This document shows, piece after piece, positions 45,112 through 51,313 of a stretch of DNA of 52,849 bases; the first letter of the stretch is position 1; every line of letters starts with the position of its first letter. The position numbers were made by a program, and so were the translations under genes. Source of the DNA: Candidatus Hermodarchaeota archaeon (GTDB lineage: Archaea; Asgardarchaeota; Hermodarchaeia; Hermodarchaeales; Hermodarchaeaceae). Below the pieces are notes generated by a model, which was not told the origin of the DNA, did no database searches, and was given only the letters and a program-made list of their open reading frames with translations. The stretch covers positions 1 through 52,849 of the forward strand of contig JAEOTB010000032.1 of NCBI GenBank assembly GCA_016840065.1, read 5' to 3'.

Positions 45112-45726
45112 CTAGACGGTTAGGAGGGTGTTTACGACGACGAGCCAGGTGAAGAGGAAGACAATGCCAGCGATACCAGCGTAGCGCCAACGTGTTTTAT
45201 GATAAGCTATGGCCCAATAGCAGAAGAGGAAGACCCCGACAGTCATTGCCCATCCACCAAGAGTCAGTATGGGAAGACCTTCAGGACCCCCAAAGAAGAC
45301 CACTTGAGCCGGGTCGAAATTCCATTCCCACCAAAGCGCCGCAACAGCAGGCATTTCGATGATTAGGCTAATTGTGGCAGAGATAAGACCCGCTAGGGTC
45401 GCAACGACTGGCATACGGCTGCGTAGGGGCTTGTCTATACCAGTAATCATACTGGCTAGGTACCAACTAGTGTAAGCAGAGAAGGTCCAGCCTACAGGAA
45501 CTACTAGCGGTGCAAAACCAATCCAGATATCAACAGGAAACACAAAGCCATACAAGTTGTAAGCGGGATTGAGGAAGAAGAGTACATTTTCGCGGATAAT
45601 CCCGTAGACGAGGGCGAATCCAAAGAAGCCAAGGGTTGGCTTCAAGCCACCACGGTACCTGTAGTGATGATAAACTAGGAAAACAAAGGCAATGTAGGCG
45701 GGAATGCTAAGCCAGAGACCACTCAT
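45112..45726 (-). CDS. CruF / carotenoid-biosynthesis (1,2-hydratase) family membrane protein
   Basis: GIIRE, APLVVPVGW, WWEW and GLP..TLGGW patterns; ~6 TM segments. Confidence 0.6.
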   Translation of the reverse strand: MSGLWLSIPAYIAFVFLVYHHYRYRGGLKPTLGFFGFALVYGIIRENVLFFLNPAYNLYGFVFPVDIWIGFAPLVVPVGWTFSAYTSWYLASMITGIDKPLRSRMPVVATLAGLISATISLIIEMPAVAALWWEWNFDPAQVVFFGGPEGLPILTLGGWAMTVGVFLFCYWAIAYHKTRWRYAGIAGIVFLFTWLVVVNTLLTV

Positions 45727-45932
45727 GCAACAGGACCCTCCTTTAAGTGGTGATGGTTTCGTACAATAGCTATAACCACTGCGATGACGATGACGATAAG
45801 AATAGGAACAGCTGAAATAAGGAAGTGAAGGCGAGCCAGAAGTACAACATCAACGAAAACCATTACGCCAATCATGAAGAGGGTTGCCCACAGAGGGATA
45901 TATTGGAGAAGTCGTTCTTTCCAGGTTGTCAT
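45723..45932 (-). CDS. small 2-TM membrane protein
   Basis: GGTGA RBS; two hydrophobic helices; stop overlaps the CruF-like start (ATGA). Confidence 0.7.
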   Translation of the reverse strand: MTTWKERLLQYIPLWATLFMIGVMVFVDVVLLARLHFLISAVPILIVIVIAVVIAIVRNHHHLKEGPVA

Positions 45933-46013
45933 TTTACTCACCAAGGTATAGGGAACTCGTGAGTTTTAGACAGATTGGAAGGTCTTTCTATTTAGCCTTT
46001 AAGGGAAAGGGGC

Positions 46014-48881
46014 TTAGTAGGTTATTCCTCGTTTTCGGCTGCCCCATTTCACAATCTCCATACCCACAATTGCAGGGAGAGCCAGTGAGAATGCAATAAG
46101 CCAATCAAATGCCATCAGCGGTATGTACTCGAAGAGTCCAAGGATGTATCCGAAAAGCCCACCAGCACTAGCAGCCAGTATGTCAGGATACAGTATTGGA
46201 ACATACATCAGCCCCCAGTGCATCAAGAAAACAAAGCCTATCATGGCATAGATGAACCAGTAGCTTTCCCGTCTTATCGAGCGGGTTAAGGGCTGGTTTA
46301 TACGGCGGATGCTAAGAATCATGAATGATTCAGCGAAAAGAAGAACCGTAATGGAAATCATTTGCGCCTTTTGAAGCGCTTCAGCCGCATATGGTGTCAG
46401 ATGCGTGCTACCAGGTAGAATCGCACCCCATGTGAAGAAGTATGCTATCGCAACCCCTATGGAAATTAGGACCGCGTTAAGAACTAGATAGACGGCTAGT
46501 TGATGATTGATTATTGATTCTGTGTTGCGAGGAGTTTCTTGCATTGCATCCTTTGCTGGTCGGTCAAAAACTAATGCGAGCCCAGGCCATGTGTGGCTAG
46601 AGATTGTAAGAAAGATATGTTGCCAGTAGGTGAGAAAGGTAATACGGAAAAGGAATGTCCCAAAGAAGAGGACAGATTCAGCCAAGTTAATGGCAACATA
46701 GAAGAAAATCATCATCCGGATCTTGTTGAAGAGGCTTCGCCCCTGCTTGATTCCTTCGACGATGGAGGTGAAACTATCATCGGTGATTATCATATCGGAA
46801 GCTTCTTTCGCGACGTCAGTTCCTGTGACGCCCATGGCGATTCCGACATCGCTAATACTTAGGGCGAGTGCGTCGTTCACTCCGTCGCCTGTTACTGCAA
46901 CAGCTCTGTCTGTATCTTTATACCGTTGTACGATTACTTGTTTGTCGTCAGGGTCTACTCGGGCAAACACGCTTGTTCTTTGGAATTTGTCATCACTAAG
47001 TTCTGTGGCTTCTTTCCCTTCAAAGACGAGGTCATCATCACTGACGATTTCTAGCTGGCGTCCAACTGTTCGAGCGGTTGCAGCGCTATCGCCAGTCACC
47101 ATCACTGTTTTGATTCCTGCACTAGTGCATTCCTGAACGGCTTCCCGAACCCCTTCCCGTGGAGGGTCAAGGATGCAGACAAAACCTACAAAGGTGAGAT
47201 TCTCCTCAACTTTTTCCCTTTCGTTTTCTCCACCTGTCTTGGGGAGCTTGGGTAGCCGTTTGAAAGCTAGGGAGAGGACTCGATACCCGCCAGCAGCGAA
47301 TTCGCCAGCGTATTTGGAGATCACCTTTGCACGCTTGGGAGTCATTTTCTGGCTATTCTTCTCATCCCCTATCCTCGTACATCTTGAAAGCAGGATATCA
47401 GTTGCCCCTTTAACAAAAACGATGTATCCGCCCTCAGGGTATGTAAAAATGCGAGTCATACGTTTTAGCCGAGAGTCAAAGGGATAATTCCGTACCATCT
47501 GGAAATCAAGAAGGGAACGCTCGGAGATACCGCTTTTTCGGTATAATGCAAGCAACGCTGCTTCGGTGGGGTTTCCTACCGCTTTCCATCGAATCTCTCC
47601 ATCATCAGATTTCTCTGTCTGTATCTCGGCGTCGTTGTTCAATCCGCCAATCCTTATGAGAAGCGCAAGCCTACTATCTGCTTTGAGCTTCACAGGAGTT
47701 TTAGAAACGTGCATTACATTCTCATCTACGCTTTCAACGGCGTAGATTTTCCCTTCGGGTTTGTATCCCTTGCCAGTGACCTTGTATAGATGCTCTCCGT
47801 CCCATACAAGATCAGTGACCATCTCGCTACGAGTTAGAGTGCCAGTCTTGTCAGTGCATATGACGCTTACTCTCCCAAGGCTTTCCACAGCCGACAAATC
47901 ACGGACAACCACTCCGTAACGTGCCATTGCTAAAACACCAGTGATAAGTGTGATCGTAGTCAACAAGGGTATGTTAATCGGCATCACGGTCATCGCGTTT
48001 GTGATTGCCTCTGCAGCCAAATCTGGAAGCGTCGAAGTATCTAAGGGGTGCGGGAATAGGAGTCGGACCGCCAGCGAGACAACTAACAGTATGACAGCAG
48101 CTGTACCAAGCACGAGTGCAAGTCGGTTGACCTTTTGACGAAGAGGAATATCACTGGTGCTCAAGGTTTCGAGGCCCTGGCTGATTTTTCCAATCTCTGT
48201 GTTTTCTCCAGTTTCTGTTACTAGACACATGGCAGAACCTGTGGCTACAAAGGTTCCTCGGTACACCATGTTGGAACGAGCATGGAGGGGGGTTTCAACG
48301 GGTAGGGGCTCCTCTGTTACATCCTTCTCCACAGGCGCGCTTTCACCAGTTAATGATGCTTCACCAGCTGTGAGGTTACTAGCTTTAACTATTCTACCAT
48401 CAGCAGGTATGAGGTCGCCCTGAGTGAGGGCAAGGAGATCGCCTGGGACTACTAGCGTTGTGTCTATCTCCTGTTTTATGCCTTCACGGACCGCGATAAT
48501 AGTGTCGGCTGAAAGAGCTTGGAGTGCTTCTAATTTCTTCTCTGCCCTATATTGTTGAATAATAGCTAGCAACGCATTAAACAGAATAATGGAGAACCAG
48601 ATGGATGCCTGACCGAAATTCCCAAGGAGAAAAAGGGCAGCAGTACTTATTATGTAGATTAAGATTAGACCGTTGAGTATTGGGGCAAGGTAGACACGCC
48701 AAAAGGAGGAACGAATTCGAGGGAGCGAGTTAGGACCAAAGGATTCTAACCGAGTCTCCGCTTTCTGGCTTGATATGCCACTTGTAGAATCCGTTCCTAA
48801 ATCGGAAATAATGTCTGAAAGTGGTCTGCTATGGGGTAGAAGTTCCTCTTGTGGGGGTGTAGCATCGCTTTTTGGTGACAT
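46014..48881 (-). CDS. P-type ATPase, P2-like scaffold with non-canonical ion-binding residues
   Basis: ASLTGES, DKTGTLT, KGA, DPPR, MVTGD and TGDGVND motifs; ~10 TM; M4 reads PINIP. Confidence 0.93.
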   Translation of the reverse strand: MSPKSDATPPQEELLPHSRPLSDIISDLGTDSTSGISSQKAETRLESFGPNSLPRIRSSFWRVYLAPILNGLILIYIISTAALFLLGNFGQASIWFSIILFNALLAIIQQYRAEKKLEALQALSADTIIAVREGIKQEIDTTLVVPGDLLALTQGDLIPADGRIVKASNLTAGEASLTGESAPVEKDVTEEPLPVETPLHARSNMVYRGTFVATGSAMCLVTETGENTEIGKISQGLETLSTSDIPLRQKVNRLALVLGTAAVILLVVSLAVRLLFPHPLDTSTLPDLAAEAITNAMTVMPINIPLLTTITLITGVLAMARYGVVVRDLSAVESLGRVSVICTDKTGTLTRSEMVTDLVWDGEHLYKVTGKGYKPEGKIYAVESVDENVMHVSKTPVKLKADSRLALLIRIGGLNNDAEIQTEKSDDGEIRWKAVGNPTEAALLALYRKSGISERSLLDFQMVRNYPFDSRLKRMTRIFTYPEGGYIVFVKGATDILLSRCTRIGDEKNSQKMTPKRAKVISKYAGEFAAGGYRVLSLAFKRLPKLPKTGGENEREKVEENLTFVGFVCILDPPREGVREAVQECTSAGIKTVMVTGDSAATARTVGRQLEIVSDDDLVFEGKEATELSDDKFQRTSVFARVDPDDKQVIVQRYKDTDRAVAVTGDGVNDALALSISDVGIAMGVTGTDVAKEASDMIITDDSFTSIVEGIKQGRSLFNKIRMMIFFYVAINLAESVLFFGTFLFRITFLTYWQHIFLTISSHTWPGLALVFDRPAKDAMQETPRNTESIINHQLAVYLVLNAVLISIGVAIAYFFTWGAILPGSTHLTPYAAEALQKAQMISITVLLFAESFMILSIRRINQPLTRSIRRESYWFIYAMIGFVFLMHWGLMYVPILYPDILAASAGGLFGYILGLFEYIPLMAFDWLIAFSLALPAIVGMEIVKWGSRKRGITY

Positions 48882-48946
48882 CCCAATTTCCCGTTAAGGG
48901 GTGTTCTTTTTCCTTAAAGTCATTGTGGCACTAGTCGCTTAACCAG

Positions 48947-51313
48947 TTATTTCGGTGGTGTACTGAATTCTCGCATGACATTTGCCATTTCTTGTAATCG
49001 TTTATCGGCTAATTTGTTGATTTCACTAGCTGGTCTTCCGGTTAGTAATTCAATCCCTTCATCGATTGTATCAACGGCGAAGATATGGAATTTACCCGCT
49101 TCCACTGCCTTTACAATTTCCTCCTTCAGCATGAGGTTCTGGATGTTTGCCTTGGGAATAAGAACTCCTTGGTCACCTGTTAGACCCGTTACCTTACATA
49201 CTGCGAAATAGCCCTCGATTTTCTCGTTGACCCCACCAATGGCTTGAATCTCACCATGTTGGTTGACCGAACCGGTTACTGCGAAGCGCTGCTGGATGGG
49301 TACACCAGACAAGGCAGAGAGGAGAGCGTATAGTTCAGTGCTGCTGGCGCTATCTCCTTCGACTCCTGAGTAGCTTTGCTCGAAGACAAGGCGAGCTGAA
49401 AGGCTTAGAGGTTTATCCCGCCCAAATTTCTCCGAGAGGTACCCGCTGAGTATGTGGACGCCTTTGTGATGAATACTACCACCTAATCCTGCTTCGCGTT
49501 CAATGTCGATAACGCGACCACGTCCAGGTGCTACACTTGCGGTAACCCGAGAAGGTCGCCCGAAAGCAAAGTCACCAAGAGAAAGGACAGAAAGGCCATT
49601 AATCTGACCAACTACCTCACCCTTCGTGGTGATGAGAATTACCTCTTTTTCTATGAGTTCGCGTATCTTCTCCTCCAACAAATTAGAGCGATAAAGGCGC
49701 GCCTCTAAAGCCTTAATGATGTGTTTTCGTTCGATGAGGCGTTTACGGTCTTCTTTAGCATAATGATTAGCCTCCCGTATGATGTCAGCGATGACACCGA
49801 AATGAACCGATAGTTTGGCCTGGTTCTCAGCAAGGCGAGAACTATAGTCAACAACTTCCGCAATAGCCTCTGCTGCTAGTTCACGTAATTCTTCCTTCTG
49901 TGTGAGAGACCGGATAAATTGGCAATAGAGGCGGATGTTCTTTTCAGTGCGATCCATGCTTGTATCAAAATCTGCTTTGACCTTGAAGAGCTCGCGGAAA
50001 TCTGGGTCCAGAATATAGAGTTGTTGATAAATGAAGGGATCACCTATTATGACCACCTTGATTTTAAGCGGAATCGATTCTGGACGCAAGGTTTTCATTG
50101 ATAGGAAACCGACCTGCTCCGCTGGCTCTTCAATGACGACATGATTATTTTGTAAGGCTCTCTTAAGAGCTGGGTAAGAAAGAGGTGAAGTGAGAAGCTC
50201 TCGAACGGGAACCACCAAGTAGCCACCATTCACCTTGTGAAGGGCTCCTGGACGAATCATTGAATAGTCCGTAAAGAGGGTTCCAAATCGCGGCTCTTTT
50301 TCAATACGACCAAAAAGGTTTGAATAAGTTGGATTAGTGATTATCATGACTGGAGCGCCTTCTTGTTCGGAGTTGTCAACAATGAGGTTCGCCTTGTACC
50401 GTTTTGAGAACTCCTCAGGAGAAATCCTCCTTGACTGTTGTTGAGGAGGAAGTGTAACATTGCCTTCTTGCCGCCCCATGAAAATACTGAGATTTTCTGT
50501 GATATCCTTGGCGATATCATGAATGAACTCGCTAACCTCGGGGTAATTAGTATACTCATCCAAGAAATCATCAATAATCGGATTCAGAGTAAAGCGTACA
50601 GCATCTTCCTCCATCTTTTTTAGCGCGGCTACAAGTTCACGCTCCAGAGTCTGAAGCGCCCTGAAAAGCTTACGTAGCTCAGTTTCAAGGACTTCGCGTC
50701 GGTTCTCAATGCTCTCCCTTTCCTCTGCAGACATCTTGGCTACTTGTGAGCGCTTTACCTCCTCACCCTCCACTACAGGAACAATGACAAGCCCAGTCTG
50801 CGTGCCTCGAAGAGCGAAACCTGCTTTTTGAGCCTTCTCCTGCATTTTCGTAAGAATATCATTCCGCACCCGCTCATACTGACTACGCCTATCCTCGCGT
50901 GAAGTTACAAACTCTTCACTTTCCAGCATCTTCGTAATCGAGTTCCGCGCAGCCTCAACGAAGTTGTCAAGGTCAACAACAAGAGCCTTACCCTTCCCCG
51001 CGGACAACATCAAAGCCCGAGGCTGATACGGGTCACTGAAATTTGACACATACAGAACATCAGACGGAACAGGCTCCTTAGAGGCGATCTCATTGAGATA
51101 CGTGGTAACAGCCGTCGTACGACCTGTACCATGCCCTCCACTAACATAGATGTTGAAACCATGGTCACTAATCTCCAAGCCAAAAGACAAAGCCTGCAAA
51201 GCCCGCTTCTGCCCCACAATATCCTTCAAAGGTGTGAAATCAGCACTTGATTTACATTTCAAACCCTTGACACTACACACAGCACGAAGTTGTTTAGGCG
51301 TGAGTTCCTTCAA
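48947..51313 (-). CDS. Lon-like protease, LonC/AAA_32 type
   Basis: GQKRA, long coiled-coil insert, PGALHKVNGGYL and VEGDSAS/GGVNEKIEG Ser-Lys dyad; no TM segment. Confidence 0.92.
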   Translation of the reverse strand: MKELTPKQLRAVCSVKGLKCKSSADFTPLKDIVGQKRALQALSFGLEISDHGFNIYVSGGHGTGRTTAVTTYLNEIASKEPVPSDVLYVSNFSDPYQPRALMLSAGKGKALVVDLDNFVEAARNSITKMLESEEFVTSREDRRSQYERVRNDILTKMQEKAQKAGFALRGTQTGLVIVPVVEGEEVKRSQVAKMSAEERESIENRREVLETELRKLFRALQTLERELVAALKKMEEDAVRFTLNPIIDDFLDEYTNYPEVSEFIHDIAKDITENLSIFMGRQEGNVTLPPQQQSRRISPEEFSKRYKANLIVDNSEQEGAPVMIITNPTYSNLFGRIEKEPRFGTLFTDYSMIRPGALHKVNGGYLVVPVRELLTSPLSYPALKRALQNNHVVIEEPAEQVGFLSMKTLRPESIPLKIKVVIIGDPFIYQQLYILDPDFRELFKVKADFDTSMDRTEKNIRLYCQFIRSLTQKEELRELAAEAIAEVVDYSSRLAENQAKLSVHFGVIADIIREANHYAKEDRKRLIERKHIIKALEARLYRSNLLEEKIRELIEKEVILITTKGEVVGQINGLSVLSLGDFAFGRPSRVTASVAPGRGRVIDIEREAGLGGSIHHKGVHILSGYLSEKFGRDKPLSLSARLVFEQSYSGVEGDSASSTELYALLSALSGVPIQQRFAVTGSVNQHGEIQAIGGVNEKIEGYFAVCKVTGLTGDQGVLIPKANIQNLMLKEEIVKAVEAGKFHIFAVDTIDEGIELLTGRPASEINKLADKRLQEMANVMREFSTPPK

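Follow-up and report, generated by a model that had tools for sequence, protein, structure and literature searches.

A P-type ATPase gene with intact catalytic motifs

Contig JAEOTB010000032.1 of assembly GCA_016840065.1, assigned to a Candidatus Hermodarchaeota archaeon (Asgard archaea; Hermodarchaeia), carries the P-type ATPase gene (P0001) that is the subject of this analysis. The window, that is, the whole stretch of DNA analyzed, comprises positions 1 to 52,849 of the forward strand (52,849 nucleotides). The encoded protein combines the cytoplasmic machinery of standard P2/P3-type pumps with a rebuilt membrane transport site, and the family to which it belongs probably moves a small cation other than Ca2+. 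The gene and its catalytic motifs are:

46014-48881, minus strand: P-type ATPase gene (P0001), a complete open reading frame (ORF) of 955 amino acids without internal stops, stop codon included
48339-48350, minus strand: A-domain phosphatase motif TGES, residues 178 to 181; G179 and E180 invariant in the family
47832-47852, minus strand: phosphorylation motif DKTGTLT, residues 344 to 350 (Asp344); D344, K345, G347, T348, and T350 invariant
46872-46889, minus strand: P-domain hinge motif GDGVND, residues 665 to 670, followed by Leu672 where canonical pumps have Pro

The protein contains the full P2/P3-type set of Pfam domains (Cation_ATPase_N, E1-E2_ATPase, Cation_ATPase, Hydrolase, and Cation_ATPase_C) and all of the P-type superfamily hallmarks (DKTGT, TGES, TGD, and GDGVND). 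Across a 75-sequence family alignment, which reaches down to 32% identity, Asp344, Lys491, DPPR, TGD, and GDGVND were all invariant. An earlier reading of this DNA from its letters alone (the original prediction) had described TGES, DKTGTLT, and GDGVND as intact, and these motifs proved to be both present and invariant in the family. These features are consistent with an intact, functional E1/E2 (Post-Albers) ATP-driven pump with P2/P3-standard cytoplasmic machinery, which we consider probable jointly with the account of the transport site developed below.

Residues of the proposed transport site

The membrane helices (M1 to M10) hold the following motifs, given with the corresponding positions of SERCA where these apply:

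48672-48686, minus strand: M1 motif APILN, residues 66 to 70; Pro67 is a family signature, at a position where canonical pumps have Gln
47967-47981, minus strand: M4 motif PINIP, residues 301 to 305; Ile302 corresponds to SERCA Glu309 and Asn303 to Gly310
46677-46688, minus strand: M5 motif NLAE, residues 732 to 735; Asn732 at the Asn768 position and Glu735 at the Glu771 position
46584-46622, minus strand: M6 motif QHIFLTISSHTWP, residues 754 to 766; Thr759 at the Asn796 position, Ser762 at the Thr799 position, and His763 at the Asp800 position
46326-46337, minus strand: M8 motif FAES, residues 849 to 852; Glu851 at the Glu908 position

In a HMMER alignment to the Listeria pump LMCA1, Ile302 aligned with the Glu of PE(A/G)L, and Thr759 and His763 aligned with the Asn and Asp of M6, respectively. 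MAFFT alignments with approximately 110 canonical PEGLP pumps gave the same register and placed Asn732, Glu735, and Glu851 under the M5 N..E and the M8 Glu/Gln; 97% of the canonical sequences have Asp at the His763 position. The main substitutions had been anticipated, and these alignments agree with the original prediction that MPINIP replaces IPEGLP in M4 (with PINIP exactly where predicted), that SERCA E309/N796/D800 become Ile302/Thr759/His763, that the M5 and M8 acids (Glu735 and Glu851) are retained, and that the M6 Asp required by P3A pumps is absent, with His763 in its place.

Conservation of these residues in the 75-sequence alignment was 100% for P301 and E735, 99% for H763, 97% for E851, 96% for N303, 95% for N732, and 88% for I302. 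Positions 761, 762, and 764 were Ser/Thr, and position 759, equivalent to SERCA Asn796, was variable (V/T/Y). A polar shell (Asn303, Asn732, Glu735, His763, and Glu851) is thus strictly conserved at positions homologous to SERCA site I, and two of the three SERCA site-II side chains are lost. In one subclade (L131 in genome G015, and P0130), the M4 Asn is replaced (PITIP, PIMIP); in P0130, the M6 His is in addition followed immediately by a newly acquired Asp (VHDIPP), possibly a compensating change in the site.

We also identified signature positions, defined as those at which at least 80% of the family shares one residue and the canonical set conserves a different one. From canonical to family, these were G to N303, D to H763, Q to P67 (M1), E to Q110 (M2), P to L672 (NDAPAL), and A to G710, with R337, N415, and R860 as further family residues. 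At the M1 position, Pro was found in 90% of family sequences and Gln in 94% of canonical pumps, and N70 of the same motif was 93% conserved in the family. The M1 and M2 signature positions are presumably those of Gln56 and Glu109 in the polar cytoplasmic ion-entry region of SERCA. On this presumed mapping, the ion entry path and the transport site appear to have changed together in the family.

The original prediction had allowed for a degenerating gene with unconserved motifs. Instead, PINIP and the M6 motif (S/T)(S/T)H(S/T)(W/F)PG were present in 119 of the 119 close homologues that include the phosphorylation site, a level of conservation that, judged by sequence comparison, is far beyond chance. 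The best 120 database matches were 47 to 91% identical to the window's protein, and the named ones were from Asgard metagenome-assembled genomes (Promethearchaeota, Thor-, and Hodarchaeota). A decaying or non-transporting ATPase, with odd membrane residues left by relaxed selection, would fit with the few family representatives that lack the His or the M8 Glu (P0144 and P0128), and with the fact that only two P-type ATPase genes, the PINIP pump and a CopA-type CPC pump, were found in the host genome (84% complete). The open frame, the invariant catalytic motifs, and the position of the odd residues among the protein's best conserved, across hundreds of genomes, effectively refute this explanation, and we give it almost no credence.

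Distribution across Asgard archaea

When 1.84 billion cluster representatives (half-identity clusters) were searched exhaustively with HMMER, approximately 45 family representatives were recovered at 480 to 1317 bits; their M4, M5, M6, and M8 helices carry P-[IVFW]-N-[ILF]-[PV], N..E, His, and Glu, respectively. The entries ranked immediately below were canonical PEGLP / N..D pumps. Named members of the family clusters were Promethearchaeota, Thor-, Hod-, Hel-, and Odinarchaeota. One sequence, P0127, is labeled 'Candidatus Korarchaeota archaeon'; its nearest copy among the loci examined (55% identity) lies in the window's phylum, and the label may stem from a problem of binning or naming or may point to an exceptional occurrence beyond Asgard.

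Among 400 genomes of the window's phylum, 372 had a match at E <= 1e-100 and approximately 290 had one below 1e-160. Every inspected copy among the matches of approximately 750 bits and above carried the family signature. Five Asgard families, with best matches of 1e-126 to 1e-152, held canonical PEGLP-type pumps only; the family is therefore widespread in the phylum, not universal. Scores of this kind place it in roughly three quarters of the 400 Asgard genomes, a count that is approximate because the most divergent family representatives score in the same range as canonical pumps (1e-126 to 1e-152).

Each of five single-contig Asgard genomes encoded one to four family paralogues, and four of the five also held one to three canonical PEGLP pumps. 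This coexistence within the same genome argues for a different job. The largest expansion seen was in a 4.4-Mb single-contig genome (G134), which has one canonical PEGLP pump and four family paralogues (L187, L191, L194, and L197; M4 motifs PVNIP, PINLP, PLNFP, and PINIP). At two further loci (L128, 8595-14455, and L132, 8561-15217), two paralogues, one of the PINLP and one of the PINIP type, form a head-to-tail tandem, and both retain the Asn, Glu, and His.

Sampling of two other archaeal phyla (802 genomes) yielded no family member, and the best matches there reached at most 497 bits; 14 of the 14 matches inspected were PEGLP, PSSLP, or PNSLP pumps with M6 N..TD. Five loci from another archaeal phylum (L156, L160, L161, L164, and L165, in genomes of approximately 1 Mb) had PSSLP or PNSLP for PEGLP and kept the M6 N..TD. 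Their M4 motif is ENA-like, and these pumps may be another unstudied variant. A scan of genome contigs with the universal DKTGT and GDGVND peptides returned at least 80 canonical bacterial and archaeal pumps and no family member among the matches listed; it used universal peptides only and is thus uninformative on the distribution of the family. An ESM Atlas search with the M5-M10 domain returned generic Cation_ATPase_C clusters only. The family is apparently almost confined to Asgard archaea.

Position among P-type ATPases

The P2A Ca2+-ATPases (LMCA1, 9euq/6zhf; SPCA1, 8iwt/7yag; SERCA1a/2) were the best sequence (E ~1e-116), profile, and fold matches. They share with the family 10 membrane helices, Cation_ATPase_N/C, TGES, KGA, DPPR, TGD, and GDGVND, and the M5 N..E and M8 Glu of SERCA site I also occur in the family. 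They differ at M4, where their Glu and Gly are Ile and Asn in the family; at M6, where Asn and Asp are a variable residue and His; and at M1 and M2, where Gln is Pro and Glu is Gln. The P2A motifs PEGL(P) in M4 and N-x-x-(T)-D in M6 are thus missing, and the family scores about half the P2A equivalog cutoffs.

Against the NCBIfam models, the protein scored 430 versus a cutoff of 798 bits (PMR1-type, TIGR01522), 413 versus 703 (SERCA-type, TIGR01116), 401 versus 645 (P2D, TIGR01523), 378 versus 507 (PMCA), 312 versus 615 (P3A, TIGR01647), 239 versus 618 (P5), and 86 versus 431 (P4, TIGR01652), with 317 bits for P2C and 279 for P3B. No NCBIfam subfamily cutoff was reached by any of the seven family members scored; the six further members were nearly equidistant from the IIA and IID models (TIGR01523, 366 to 445 bits). 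Of two canonical controls, P0173 clearly passed the IIA cutoffs and the other only just met the PMCA cutoff.

A phylogeny (IQ-TREE, LG+C20, quick search) was computed from 31 family representatives, 31 canonical pumps, four P3-like archaeal pumps, and the host CopA. All 31 family representatives lay on one side of a branch with Shimodaira-Hasegawa-like approximate likelihood ratio test (SH-aLRT) support of 80 to 94, with the canonical P2A and P3-like pumps opposite. Profile scores stood in for eukaryotic P2C, P2D, P3A, P4, and P5 sequences in this placement. The description of the pump as P2-like in the original prediction holds in a loose sense only: taken by itself, the M5-M10 membrane domain scored no more than 23 bits (E = 4e-4) with the best-matching P2A pump of solved structure, so the likeness to P2A pumps lies mostly in the cytoplasmic domains.

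Could this still be a Ca2+ (or Mg2+) pump, with a site-I-only pocket and an unusual ligand set? Annotation pipelines label family proteins 'Ca2+-transporting ATPase', the sources name the relatives Ca2+-ATPases, the best profile and structure matches are PMR1/SPCA, SERCA, and LMCA1, and oxygen ligands are kept at four of the five SERCA site-I positions. However, scores of about half the equivalog cutoffs (430 versus 798; 413 versus 703) and the presence of canonical PEGLP pumps in the same genomes speak against it. No characterized Ca2+ P-type pump is known in which the M4 Glu and the M6 Asp are both missing. Ca2+ pumps with a single site (LMCA1, SPCA, and PMCA) retain site II, not site I, and His is a poor Ca2+ ligand; both points count against a Ca2+ pump, which we regard as unlikely here.

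P3A H+-ATPases (AHA2, Pma1, and the archaeal MJ1226-type) and the present family both have a hydrophobic residue after the M4 Pro, one protonatable residue at the key M6 position, and no beta subunit. An archaeal P3A pump sequence reads PVAQP in M4, with a hydrophobic residue at the Glu309 position, and the eukaryotic P3A motifs are PIAMP and PVGLP. In the P3A mechanism, the M6 Asp is the H+ acceptor and is controlled by an M5 Arg (PMC10654040). The family differs in having His763 and no M5 Arg, and P3A membership was rejected on these two residues and on the TIGR01647 score (312 versus 615 bits).

The P2D ENA-type Na+/K+ ATPases of fungi and mosses, compared here by profile, gave a score near that for Ca2+ pumps and below the 645-bit cutoff. 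ENA pumps likewise lack the M4 Glu (PSSL) and the M6 Asp, and they are known from eukaryotes only. The P6 pump CtpE of Mycobacterium has PEGL in M4, Ile for the M6 Asp, and no N-domain Lys (PMC10654040). It resembles the family in being prokaryotic, in adjoining the Ca2+ pumps, and in the loss of the M6 Asp; P6 membership was rejected because the family has PINIP, His763, and an invariant Lys491. In P1B-4 pumps, a His of the membrane domain serves as an internal counter-ion (PMC10654040). These pumps (sCoaT type) are like the family in having a membrane His and differ in topology and in the SPC of M4, which makes the likeness a mechanistic analogy only.

A 2023 review by Palmgren recognizes families P1 to P6 and expects further families only in prokaryotes (PMC10654040). 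Our search of the literature on the motif, on Asgard P-type ATPases, and on FUPA families found no description of the present family. The original prediction of an undescribed subclass with a new substrate is in line with the lack of any NCBIfam cutoff reached, the separate branch, and the poor fit to each of P1 to P6, and the sequence evidence supports placing the pump in an undescribed subclass or family separate from those six.

Predicted structure

An AlphaFold2 model, built with the family alignment as input, had a mean predicted local distance difference test (pLDDT) score of 86.1, a predicted template modeling (pTM) score of 0.81, and ten membrane helices. Its best Foldseek matches were SPCA1, SERCA, and Na,K-ATPase (TM-scores 0.63 to 0.79). 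The M4 helix was broken at residues 300 to 303 and M6 at 761 to 764, i.e., at Asn303 and His763. Such breaks are expected of unwound segments that coordinate an ion.

The fold also bears on whether the protein might be a lipid flippase, another large-substrate transporter, or an intermediate toward eukaryotic P4 (or P5) pumps, the last of which the original prediction had proposed. P4 flippases share the Ile after the M4 Pro (PISL, compared with PINIP in the family), the host belongs to Asgard, a lineage of archaea related to eukaryotes, and no prokaryotic ancestor of the P4 pumps is known (PMC10654040). Yet the A domain carries TGES instead of the P4 motif DGET, and the scores against the P4 (86 versus 431 bits) and P5 (239 versus 618) models are low. 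The strict conservation of two buried Glu, one His, and two Asn fits an ion site, and these buried acidic residues are a further difference from P4 flippases. The family branches beside P2A/P3 pumps, and its best folds are of the P2 type. No conserved partner gene was found. The Cdc50 model (PF03381) matched nothing in the 84%-complete genome, nor did it match any control genome. The 204-amino-acid membrane protein encoded downstream matched neither CruF/carotenoid proteins nor any other family, and the sister genus lacks it at that position. The proposed step toward flippases is thus not supported, and flippase-like readings as a group are very improbable.

Proposed transport mechanism and ion

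We propose, as the probable reading, that the protein is an active pump with a single transport site, that the small cation it moves is not Ca2+, and that it comes from an Asgard-centered family beside the P2A and P3-like pumps. The SERCA site II position would be plugged, with Ile302 replacing the gating Glu and position 759 variable. A single pocket would be rebuilt at the site I position from Asn303 (M4), Asn732 and Glu735 (M5), Ser/Thr761-764 and His763 (M6), and Glu851 (M8). One small non-Ca2+ cation would be occluded between M4, M5, M6, and M8 and moved across the membrane once per ATP. His763, which takes the place of the key Asp of other pumps in the unwound stretch of M6, could act as a protonatable acceptor/donor or, like the P1B-4 His, as a built-in counter-ion.

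For the ion itself, H+ or another monovalent cation (Na+/K+) is our tentative first choice, with H+ ahead. The hydrophobic residue at the Glu309 position and the single protonatable residue at the Asp800 position are reminiscent of P3A proton pumps, and the near-equal ENA-model score and the marine setting keep Na+ among the candidates. A borderline divalent metal, e.g., Mn2+, Fe2+, or Zn2+, would likewise find suitable ligands in the two carboxylates, the imidazole, and the two amides; we rank this possibility lower and think it rather unlikely. Ca2+ or Mg2+ as the pumped ion is improbable, and any other substrate is hardly less so.

Several points weigh against this reading, in whole or in part. 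The shared cavity for Asn303, Asn732, Glu735, His763, and Glu851 is presumed from homology to SERCA site I, and one subclade has Thr or Met instead of Asn303, so this residue is not essential. How deeply the family branches hangs on the long CopA outgroup branch and a quick tree search, so that the root is not trustworthy. The choice of ion is purely inferential, and the genomic context gives no hint of it, with no neighboring gene conserved beyond the level of taxonomic family across 21 loci. Against H+ stand the absence of the P3A M5 Arg and a shell of six ligands, more than a proton requires. As regards the metals, the protein has no metal-binding tail and no Cys or Met, and no metal regulator lies nearby.

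Implications for Asgard archaea

As a deep, well-populated branch with its own strictly conserved site chemistry, the family is a concrete candidate for a further prokaryotic P-type family. Most Asgard archaea, which among archaea are the group most closely related to eukaryotes, encode it, with up to four copies per genome beside Ca2+-type pumps. A survey of Asgard transporters reported putative Ca2+-ATPases in all five Asgard proteomes and cited these as support for Ca2+ signaling (PMC7997004). If those proteins belong to the present family, only the canonical PEGLP paralogues should be taken as a basis for inferring Ca2+ signaling.

The review of P-type families also asks how the H+ pumps of the eukaryotic plasma membrane arose (PMC10654040). 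Knowledge of the family's substrate would either extend the superfamily by a new type of ion site or inform the question of where the eukaryotic H+ pumps came from. A more far-reaching idea, which we consider doubtful, is that of an Asgard-wide primary H+ (or Na+) pump energizing the membrane or setting cytosolic pH and ion balance, in the manner of eukaryotic P3A and P2C/P2D pumps. If true, eukaryote-style membrane energization by P-type pumps would predate eukaryogenesis, and the His-centered site would be unlike that of any characterized P-type ATPase and would merit a family number. Family genes are apparently present in single-contig Asgard genomes, which makes them open to expression and assay.

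Genomic neighborhood

The surroundings of the pump gene in the window include:

48947-51313, minus strand: LonB-like/LonC-like AAA protease gene, 788 amino acids, co-oriented with the pump and 65 base pairs (bp) upstream of it
48882-48946, minus strand: 65-bp spacer from the LonB-like gene to the ATPase start codon, with A/T-rich TTTAAGGAAAAA approximately 30 to 40 nucleotides before the ATG
45723-45944, minus strand: small membrane protein of 73 amino acids with an HHH run
45112-45726, minus strand: membrane protein of 204 amino acids
36463-39737, minus strand: tandem paralogous DUF4140/DUF4139 proteins, 543 and 541 amino acids
51539-52729, plus strand: 396-amino-acid protein matching NiFe-hydrogenase large subunit and Complex I 49-kDa subunit

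The A/T-rich TTTAAGGAAAAA of the spacer may be a candidate archaeal promoter of the ATPase gene. Nothing around the pump pointed to a beta subunit, a metal regulator, or a module for lipid handling. The two small membrane-protein genes lie directly downstream of the pump (45112-45944), are co-oriented with it, and overlap each other by 4 nucleotides. For neither product did Pfam or NCBIfam give a match at a threshold as loose as E <= 1, and in the sister genus the two genes are missing from the position downstream of the pump. The 204-amino-acid protein was accordingly rejected as part of a pump module.

Synteny was found within taxonomic families only, with the LonB-like gene upstream in one family (f1), other genes in a second (f31), and tandem duplicates in a third (f20); an operon or partner subunit for the pump was rejected on these grounds (21 loci). 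Adjacency of the LonB-like gene and the pump was kept in six of the six loci of f1 and not in other Asgard families. The single cluster common to two lineages was a molybdopterin-oxidoreductase-like protein with no obvious link to the pump. The 396-amino-acid protein is divergent in orientation from the Lon-pump pair, and the tandem arrangement of the DUF4140/DUF4139 proteins is conserved in related loci (cluster c18).

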